In this document: piece by piece, positions 41,301 to 44,300 of the stretch
How positions within the stretch are numbered: position 1 is the stretch's first letter
Layout: the number at the start of each line of letters is the position of its first letter
Assembly (NCBI GenBank): GCA_037379345.1
Contig: CM074523.1
Location: 12,654,551 to 12,718,550 of the forward strand
Source: Perna viridis
Lineage: Eukaryota
DNA length: 64,000 bases
Direction: 5' to 3'
Notes under the pieces: model-generated
The model's input: only the letters and a program-made list of their open reading frames with translations
Database searches by the model: none
Told to the model about the DNA's origin: nothing
Program-made: the position numbers and the translations under genes

Positions 41301-44300
41301 GTCTTTCTGGTATTCAGCCACATAACGTTGAATGCAATCTAGTGCATATGAAATAATTTACAATAATGTGCTGTCAAATAAACAAACTTGTCGGCGATGG
41401 TTAGGATCAGCTATTCCTATCGGGACACTTAGATATACCGACAATCACTCTAAGATCGTTTGAAAGGGGCGTAATTATGGAAAACCTTTGAACTAACCTT
41501 TGAAAATATAAAAATACCTTTCATCAGCTTGTAGACAACTCAACATGGACTGAAAACACACGGAATACCAGTATTTCACCTCACACAGTGAATGCAGAGC
41601 TAGCTATCTCCCATTTTAATCTTTGGATAAATACGTACTCTGGAAGCTTACCAAATTTTGACCACGCCATGCTGTTCACAAGGTAACCTGATATGTATAG
41701 AAAAAAGTGTGGTCAATTCTGAAATGTTTATGCTACGTATGAAATGTGACTAGTAACATCCCCTTGATCCTATGGCAAATAATACAGATATAAAATCGTG
41801 TTCTTGGATGACTAGAGAATGTTCTCGATTGGATCTCTGCGGAGGTCGGTTTTGTAGCTTAATCAGTTCTTACATCGATGGGAAGCCTTTGAAGCTTTTC
41901 ACTGTATTATGAATTAAAAACATAGAAAGATAGAAAAATGAAATCATTACAGTGTCTCATAATGCATTGGTGTCTCGTTAGAATATTATTTCAAAACTTT
42001 AATCGAAAAACATTTGGAACTGATACATTCGGGCAGAATTGTTATTGAAAAGGTATGACGAACGTGGATGTCGATTTTCATGTAATGGTAATTTTATGCA
42101 CTTTAGATGTGATCTATTTTGACCAATTTAAAAATCTTTCGTGAATAACAAAGACATGTATATAAATAGGTATGATCTGGAATGGAAAGGTTCTACTGAA
42201 CCCCAAGGTATGTATTTACGTAGTTGATGGGTCAAGTTTAAGCACAATTGATTCTTAAGTTTGATTTAGTGTATTAAAATGAAATCAAGAAAAAAGATAT
42301 CCCAATATATAAACTTTATATATCCAATACTCTTTTTTAACATCATTTGAATTCCACATTTATAGCGTCATGTTCTTGAAGGGTGTTGCGTGTAAAAGAG
42401 GACAGATAGGTGAAAACGTTCGCTTTAAATCACAGAAACGGCTGGATACTGGTTGTCTTTTGTTATGCTTTGAACATACAAAAAATGTGCATGTTTTTTT
42501 TTTCTTGATAACTTACAGGACTTGTATTTACTAATTCAATATGTGGTACATCAAGCCAGTCAATCGTTGAAGATAAATTTAACTTTATCATCATAACAGT
42601 TGCATCCCATTTGCTCGGACACAGGTAAGTTACTACGTATTAATTAATGATGATTAACGTCAAAAGCGAGAATTAATAAAGAGTACAGAATAGAAACTTT
42701 ACATTATATCGATTTAACAAATCTATGTTGTCGTCTGTTATGCTTGAGGCGTGTTGTCTGAACAATTTGTCTAATTCGATGCAAGGTACTTTTAATGATT
42801 TAAATGATACTAAATGCATCACTTGATTTCGTTCCCATTATAGTAAATGTAAATATTACTTACTACGAAAGCAATGCTTTACATAACTCCTGCTTAACAG
42901 TAATCGGAATATTCCGTTTTGTTTCCGCCCTTCCTTCTGCCTGTTAACCTGGCTTAAGATATCCCAAACCGTTGAATGGAAGCAATGTGTCAATCCACCC
43001 TTCCATCCAACCATCACCTGTCTTAAGTAATGGCAAAATAATATCGGAGTTAGTTTTGGGACAATTCAAACAATTCAAAATATGTCAAAATACAAATACA
43101 ATGTAAAAAGCATGAATCTGAAAACATCCACATAGGTATTCCAATTTGTCTGCTGGAGCATGTCAACACGAAATTCTAACACTTCTTTACAACATCAAAC
43201 GCGGAACTCATCAGTCTTAGGCAGCAGGTGGAAGAATTTGTCGGGAATTGACCGGTCAGATTCTAAACTTAGAGTTTCACAGAATGAACAAAATACCATT
43301 ACTTTGTTTCGCTTCGCTCCAAAATTCTTGACAGCGCGTATGACTACAATATCAGCAAAAATTTCGAAAAGAAATTCTCCTTTCTGCATCGATTTATTTT
43401 TAGCGTGGTGGAAATGGTCGAGTATTTCTGATTGACTGCAGAGATTATCGGAAAAAAACAAAGCAGGGTCCGCTCAAATAGTCAAACCATCACGTCTTGA
43501 AATACATGTAGTATTTGCCACAGGATGTTAAACCACACATAAGTTCATTTTCTATTGTAAATAAGGTACATGTACTCGGATATCTTATATTGTGATAAAA
43601 TAGTCTTAGCTTTTTCAAGACAGTATTATAATTTGAAGCACATGGACAATCTTATATCTCTATAAATTCAAAGTCATGTAACAAAACTTTAAATTAAGTT
43701 GATGTTTCTTAAAGTCTGAATGCCTTACATGACGGAGATGGAAATAACTGTTCAGCAAGTGATGCCTACATAATGGCACCATCATTCGAACCTCAAGAAG
43801 GGAAAACCGCTACTCATCCATGGATATTTTCCAATTGTTCTACGGACTACTTCACAACGAAAATTGATGAACTTGATGGGTAATATATATATAAATCAAT
43901 TATCTACTTTTGGTAATATAAATTAACTACCTACGGGTTTTCGTTTCATCATTGTTTTACAACTTGCTAGCAATTTAATGTTCTACTATTTAACAACTCG
44001 CGTGCAAAAGCAACCATCGTTTTTATTGTGGCCTAAGTACACTTATTATGGAGCTTTTTTATAGGAGTAATACAAACTGCATGAAGACTTTGGGATCTGG
44101 TTTTGACCCAACAGCTCTGACGCCTTACGATCAAAATCTCCTCGGTCTGAAGTATGACGTCGACTCACAATGTAAGATGGTGTATGGAGAAGAATCCTAC
44201 TTTTGCAGAGTATGTCTAAATTATTTTTCCTTGTTTCACGTCTATTTTTACGTAATTCATTATTTGAGGGTGTCAAATGTTCTTAAGATTCGACCAGCGG

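Follow-up and report, generated by a model that had tools for sequence, protein, structure and literature searches.

A transcribed MIG-17-like metalloprotease gene of Perna viridis lacking the catalytic Glu and the membrane anchor of its paralogs

The locus and its gene model

The DNA considered here, referred to as the window, is a stretch of 64,000 nucleotides of Perna viridis (GenBank assembly GCA_037379345.1, contig CM074523.1, positions 12,654,551 to 12,718,550, forward strand), and coordinates are given within it unless stated otherwise. It contains an M12B-like gene of 15 in-phase exons, which runs from an ATG at 31695 to 46885 and comprises 588 codons without a single stop. The 14 in-phase exons named in a preliminary description, made from the sequence alone, are all present; added to these is a first exon, which supplies the ATG at 31695 and a hydrophobic start:

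31695..31785 (+): exon 1, ATG and predicted signal peptide; the most hydrophobic 19-residue stretch begins at residue 1; paralogs A and B have the same exon, and no RNA-type contig lies over it in P. viridis
38131..38339 (+): exon 2, prodomain; weak Pep_M12B_propep match (E 0.006, under cut-off)
38701..38778 (+): exon 3, prodomain
39056..39203 (+): exon 4, prodomain
39591..39699 (+): exon 5, end of prodomain, REKR at 39629-39640, start of M12B domain
40618..40711 (+): exon 6, M12B domain
40948..41025 (+): exon 7, M12B domain
41528..41682 (+): exon 8, M12B domain
42170..42207 (+): exon 9, M12B domain; joint 42205/42517 with GT..AG in three of four runs
42519..42624 (+): exon 10, edge strand followed by the active-site helix, which carries His364 and His368
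42524..42526 (+): Val336 codon, Ala in relatives; on the edge strand beside the cleft, the second cleft change
42611..42613 (+): Leu365 codon, TTG, where the catalytic Glu is expected
43715..43879 (+): exon 11, third His at 43728-30, Met-turn at 43773-75, TT/GG polymorphism at 43725-26 (Leu/Gly373)
44065..44209 (+): exon 12, last part of the M12B domain and first part of ADAMTS_CR_2 (disintegrin-like); joints in runs X7 and X14
45026..45142 (+): exon 13, Cys-rich domain
45958..46009 (+): exon 14, Cys-rich domain
46706..46885 (+): exon 15, small helical module containing six Cys; the open frame stops about 18 residues further on

The domains follow in the order hydrophobic start, prodomain, REKR (a furin-type site, residues 189-192), M12B, ADAMTS_CR_2 and the six-Cys module, for which no Pfam match was found. 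A signal peptide is predicted at exon 1 from its hydrophobicity and from the same exon in paralogs A and B. The zinc-site residues of the model are His364, His368 and His374, with Met389 in the Met-turn; read in the spliced model, the His ligands, the Met-turn, the furin-type site and the Cys pattern are intact, as had been claimed. It should be noted that single exons of the gene, scanned alone, stay under the Pfam cut-offs; identity to Pfam-positive relatives amounts to 48-51%. The last exon may start at 48209 or at 48846, or may be a read-through from exon 15, and a contig of run X20 extends about 1.5 kb past exon 15.

Elsewhere in the window, an open frame of 212 residues (27155-27790, + strand) is by eye presumably a piece of a transposase carrying a CxC...CxH motif of the SWIM type; four open frames of the window that are unrelated to the gene, this one among them, have no Pfam match. 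A very high-copy short repeat lies inside introns at 40094-40293 and 38564-38628, with further copies near 48525-48700; its contig depth is in the millions in DNA runs, and it appears in RNA-type runs too.

The active-site codon in the assembly and in sequencing runs

The zinc motif of the gene reads HLLGH|SLNALHD and is interrupted by an intron. The proposed junction of 42519-42624 to 43715-43879 proved correct: the exons have AG..GT ends, the joint is in phase 2 and the product reads SHLLGH|SLNALHD. Codon 42611-42613, described earlier as a Leu in the position of the catalytic Glu, is indeed TTG in the assembly and in contigs from five studies. Eight runs were compared, all as contigs, which drop rare variants, and the kind of each run (RNA or DNA) is a guess or unstated in the run records. 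No other letter occurs at the codon in four of four runs (studies P3, P4, P7, P8); the contig of X3 (study P2) over the codon differs at six sites, all of them away from 42611-42613, and for X4, X7 and X14 no difference at the codon is among those listed. Because TTG stands in all fully readable runs, from five studies, an assembly error or a hidden Glu allele was rejected. A second, Glu-bearing copy of the gene was rejected as well, since protein and DNA searches of the genome with exon 10 show a single copy. Four of 24 listed runs contain hardly any of the sequence words of the gene and are uninformative.

The motif intron is skipped with GT..AG in five RNA-type runs (X7, X14, X17, X20, X6), which bears out the splicing on which the Leu reading depends, and in none of three DNA-type runs. 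In X20, the shorter flank of the bridging contig measures 106 letters; in the other four runs it measures 28, which is under the bar of 31. Three neighbouring introns are spliced out too, RNA-type contigs span 38129-38337 (exon 2), and spliced contigs are 5-15 times deeper than intron contigs, a ratio that is a poor measure of expression level.

Among the exon differences listed in the runs there is no frame-breaking allele. The eight coding variants among the differences listed comprise five that change a residue and three silent ones, a proportion which does not indicate strong constraint. One difference, TT/GG at 43725-26 (Leu or Gly before the third His), is found in four of four runs, with X14 carrying the letters of the assembly; of the single-step intermediates of this double-base polymorphism, one would be a stop.

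Family loci in the genome and conservation among relatives

Exon 11 matches at least 33 places in the P. viridis genome, and the 32 besides the gene itself were fetched. Glu is kept at all 32 (four motifs being read from weak matches) and is encoded by GAA or GAG in each of the 16 paralogs compared at codon level; the full motif including the three His is kept at 30. The exceptions are L032, with Glu but without the His residues, and L026, where the third His is lost and the gene is broken. Since the two nearest paralogs have GAA, the Leu codon TTG took two or three base changes. L026 has an in-frame stop and a frameshift in exon 11, and its third His is Tyr; the Glu is retained. L027 and L028, 1.3 Mb apart on opposite strands, have identical translations of exons 10 and 11 and represent either a recent duplication or an assembly duplicate.

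For comparison beyond the genome, the best 150 representatives at 50% identity were taken with P0012 as query, seven of them without coverage of the motif. Among 145 motif stretches, 140 are intact, five have lost His residues and none has lost only the Glu; HLxxH is thus not common to relatives (0 of 145), and no orthologue with Leu was found. A search for orthologues with exon 11 gave one match among four candidates, a Mytilus protein at 62%, and a search with exon 8 gave none.

Two further features had been put forward as signs of inactivation, and both were rejected as such because they are family traits. Asn does stand at the position of the motif Gly, but the 174 intact rows of the alignment (isoforms and near-copies included) have Gly in 97, Ser in 67, Asn in eight, Arg in one and Ala in one; with Ser or Asn in 75 of 174, this position is undiagnostic of activity in the clade. 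The prodomain is free of Cys, as described, but so is that of 11 of 14 relatives compared. The P. viridis protein differs at only six of 82 conserved columns, the median among the 174 intact rows being ten, which argues that the fold is kept. Two of these six columns are 336 and 365. Position 336, which is Ala in 157 and Val in none of the intact rows, belongs to the strand that precedes the active-site helix, as seen in a structure model of the relative P0008. No acidic residue elsewhere in the active-site helix stands in for the Glu.

Other losses of active-site residues occur in the family. Three Mytilus proteins, P0012, P0056 and P0057 (XP_076088154.1, XP_071149580.1, XP_071149579.1), read HHLGH, and this paralog is present in Mytilus galloprovincialis and M. 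edulis. A quick tree was built from 62 rows, covering residues 187-528 and composed without nematode or fly sequences. In it, the HHLGH proteins nest among Glu-bearing Mytilus proteins (SH-aLRT 99), and the P. viridis protein falls together with paralogs A and B of its own genome (SH-aLRT 98). A single origin with the Mytilus HHLGH gene is unsupported by this tree; judging from it, the Glu was lost independently in Mytilus, by a change from Glu to His. The HHLGH clade, its Glu-bearing members included, has Ile in place of the Met-turn Met and Ser in place of the edge-strand Ala. An older clade is without the zinc-binding His residues; it contains P0050, P0154, P0156, P0200 and P0203 (Ruditapes included) together with L032, and it probably represents an ancient mollusc pseudo-protease:

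1241-1405 and 746-907 in L032 coordinates (-): His-less paralog L032

Loss of stalk, SEA domain and membrane anchor

The nearest paralogs, A and B, map 120-190 kb upstream (L001-L006, L045 and L047; G000:C13, 12.49-12.57 Mb). They have the same first 14 exons, are 63-66% identical and keep the Glu. The open frame of exon 15 covers 67 residues in the Glu-less P. viridis copy, 944 in A and 553 in B, where it is rich in Thr; behind this stalk, both A and B have a transmembrane exon as well as three exons similar to the P0082 SEA domain. Their whole layout is protease, Thr stalk of 500-900 residues, SEA exons, transmembrane segment and Tyr-rich tail, for which the automatic names say ADAMTS-like.

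Neither stalk nor transmembrane segment was found downstream of the Glu-less gene, in 46600-64000 plus 10 kb beyond the window. What is found there are two short remnants:

48201..48308 (+): remnant of SEA exon 1, with a 3-nt deletion, a 36-nt insertion and two TAA; the last exon may begin here
48846..48927 (+): remnant of SEA exon 2, with 11-nt and 5-nt deletions, acceptor kept in register; the match extends from 48819

Downstream, SEA exons 1 and 2, whether taken from A or from B, match best at these remnants, and in order. For A the matches outscore all 40 controls of real DNA and for B 39 of 40; they do not outscore the top one of 30 shuffles across 17 kb. Remnants of SEA exon 3, the transmembrane exon and the tail were not found downstream. 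In the two remnants, two stops and two frame-breaking deletions occur within about 160 nt, versus none in 1765 coding nt (binomial p about 5e-5, a value that depends on the alignment). Broken SEA remnants next to an open coding frame argue that the gene was kept after its anchor had died. The loss of stalk, SEA domain and anchor goes beyond the preliminary description and is apparently unreported.

Selection on the branch

With a codon model written for this analysis (GY94, F3x4), dN/dS on the branch is 0.26 over 496 codons, compared with 0.14 for paralogs A and B (p 1e-8 against 1), so that the ratio below 1, which selection on the gene would leave, is found. By parts, it is 0.32 versus 0.22 in the prodomain (p 0.34), 0.26 versus 0.10 in the protease domain (p 0.007) and 0.18 versus 0.12 in the Cys domains (p 0.49; p 0.06 against 1), the protease domain being the only part significantly raised. 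With six paralogs and the 238 codons of the protease domain, the terminal branch has 0.30 versus 0.15 at a dS of about 0.5 (p 8e-4 against 1, p 0.016 against background); an alternative topology, with a fit better by 5 log units, left the ratio unchanged. The branch is under purifying selection, which is relaxed in the protease domain. Caution should be taken regarding its timing: as no orthologue was found, the loss of the Glu is undatable, and the branch dN/dS is the mean over a long branch, so that the selection it records may predate that loss.

Neutral simulations without indels (n=600) kept the frame in 75% at 0.002, 50% at 0.005, 27% at 0.01 and 7% at 0.02 changes per site, and in 0 of 600 at 0.05; the open frame therefore excludes a long neutral phase, whereas a very recent loss of the Glu would often leave the frame open.

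Classification and known relatives

The label "ADAMTS-like" given earlier has to be withdrawn: neither a thrombospondin type 1 repeat nor a spacer is present in the 588-residue model, and Pfam scans of six relatives revealed none either. By its layout and by the names of its relatives, called "mig-17-like" at NCBI, the protein is best classed as a MIG-17-like M12B protein. The layout shared with MIG-17 and with Sona of the fly consists of signal, prodomain, M12B and disintegrin-like/Cys-rich domains without thrombospondin repeat (passages on Sona in PMC4989167). The relative P0008 has its best sequence matches in ADAMTS-1, -4 and -5 (PDB 2jih, 2rjp, 2rjq; E 6e-13), and a model of P0008, not of the P. 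viridis protein, has its best local fold matches in the same ADAMTS (TM 0.73-0.79 by target); these differ from the P. viridis protein, which is without thrombospondin repeat, spacer and Glu. Closer to it are the Mytilus and oyster "ADAMTS-like" proteins P0082, P0035 and P0001 and the paralogs A and B, with the same exon layout and 48-66% ectodomain identity; all five keep HELGH, the Thr stalk, SEA domain and transmembrane segment, unlike the P. viridis copy.

The helix, three His and Met-turn of the M12B fold are present. The Glu of HExxH is listed as the general base of the M12 family (PMC11266112, Table 2), and in its place stands Leu (TTG). A replaced catalytic residue within a kept fold and Met-turn, in a gene that is expressed and selected, the selection before and after the Glu loss not being separated, is what characterises a pseudopeptidase, and the gene, which is real, expressed and selected, belongs with the known M12 pseudopeptidases. 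Of the pseudo-protease reading proposed earlier, the codon, the splicing and a dN/dS below 1 stand, and the ADAMTS identity does not.

Among the entries of that table, ADAM7 (HQLGH, HQLGHNLGMQHD) and ADAM29 (HHLGH, HHLGHNLGMNHD) have lost only the Glu (PMC11266112, Table 2). As in these two, the Glu alone is replaced in P. viridis, three His and the Met-turn are kept and active paralogs exist alongside. ADAM7 and ADAM29, as that source describes them, are membrane-bound, belong to the male tract of mammals and carry polar residues in place of the Glu (PMC11266112); in the P. viridis protein the replacement is Leu, the Cys-rich domain is of ADAMTS type and the anchor is missing. The HHLGH of Mytilus P0012 is identical to that of ADAM29.

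A limpet protein, P-vulgata_8, is described as a secreted "ADAM family mig-17" reprolysin of adhesive pedal mucus without HEXXH, and in the account given there it is proposed to be without enzyme function (PMC7333891). It shares with the P. viridis protein, by description, the mollusc origin, MIG-17-like nature and lack of HEXXH, as well as the secretion that is predicted for the latter; unlike the P. viridis copy, it retains Ser/Pro/Thr repeats (the same description in PMC7333891). MIG-17 acts via catalysis and removes its own prodomain (as summarised in PMC11232982), and Sona, the fly MIG-17-like protease, is made protease-dead by a Glu-to-Ala change (PMC4989167, passages on the mutant). Both, in these accounts, need protease activity, unlike the Glu-less P. 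viridis copy; without the Glu, self-removal of the prodomain as in MIG-17 is impossible, and a furin-type site is present instead. The mantle and the haemocytes of Mytilus have transcripts named "ADAM family mig-17" and "ADAMTS16" according to PMC4581086, untied to the P. viridis gene. A literature search, mostly outside subscription journals, found no published report of the P. viridis gene or of Glu-less mussel paralogs; the precedents of ADAM7, ADAM29 and P-vulgata_8 nevertheless lower the novelty.

Interpretation

We favour, with a probability of roughly 0.55, the view that the gene is an expressed tandem duplicate of a tethered MIG-17-like protease, which has lost both the Glu and the anchor and encodes a secreted, non-cutting binder in mucus or matrix. 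The signal peptide would send the protein out of the cell, and a furin-type enzyme would likely remove the prodomain at REKR. The three His and the Met-turn probably still hold zinc and maintain the fold. Leu365 is incapable of serving as general base, so that peptide bonds are predicted to remain uncut. Partners may be bound via the outer surfaces of the protease-like and Cys-rich domains, by analogy with ADAM22, which according to a figure legend in PMC11266112 binds LGI1 through its outer surfaces. The rare Ala-to-Val336 change and a protease domain evolving twice as fast as in the active paralogs make these surfaces likelier than the old cleft.

The cleft is where an alternative departs from the binder reading: as a soluble decoy, the dead ectodomain would bind the substrates or inhibitors of its sister proteases through the old cleft, damping or freeing them. 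We consider this somewhat unlikely. The dead copy is in fact the ectodomain of A and B minus stalk and anchor, 63-66% identical to them, with three His, Met-turn and helix retained, and the Glu was lost twice in this mytilid clade; yet the cleft is altered at Val336 and its neighbours, the protease domain is relaxed, and over-expression of Glu-to-Ala Sona gave no phenotype in the experiments described in the passages concerned of PMC4989167. A broader version, in which mussels repeatedly turn copies of mucin-stalked membrane proteases into secreted, zinc-holding, non-cutting decoys that regulate the sister enzymes, strikes us as doubtful. The two routes it would involve are Glu-to-Leu with deletion of stalk and anchor here and Glu-to-His in a short-tailed clade in Mytilus.

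Timing is what matters for the idea of a young pseudogene, a soluble protease long active and selected, whose Glu was lost recently and which is still transcribed. No Leu-bearing orthologue was found, the frame survives neutrally with a frequency of 0.50 at 0.005 changes per site and of 0.27 at 0.01, the family makes pseudogenes (L026), and the double-base change segregating at 43725-26 implies that a codon change of two or three bases can be one event. On the other hand, Leu stands in every fully readable run of five studies, no frame-breaking allele is among the exon differences listed, spliced contigs are deeper than intron contigs, the raised dN/dS is confined to the protease domain, and Val336 points to a cleft long out of use; all in all, we regard a young pseudogene as quite improbable. 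Very improbable in our opinion is weak or altered hydrolysis with another residue or the substrate as base. All zinc ligands and the Met-turn are kept, unlike in most M12 pseudopeptidases of PMC11266112 Table 2, but the same table gives the Glu as the general base of the family, Glu-to-Ala Sona is protease-dead (PMC4989167, as cited for the mutant), Leu has no polar group, and the helix offers no acidic substitute.

Significance

Our understanding of how metzincins cut is unchanged by the P. viridis gene. Automatic names such as "ADAMTS7-like", in turn, hide dead sites as well as the mucin-SEA-transmembrane layout. The repeat loss in Mytilus and the older clade in which all His are lost indicate that pseudo-proteases have arisen repeatedly in this bivalve family, and if the reading of repeated decoys were true, it would amount to a soluble-decoy control system for an unstudied family of cell-surface proteases. 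Together with its two intact, tethered sisters, whose exon layout it shares, the dead soluble copy forms a clean natural pair, which lets one ask how pseudo-enzymes arise and whether the loss of the anchor precedes the loss of catalysis.
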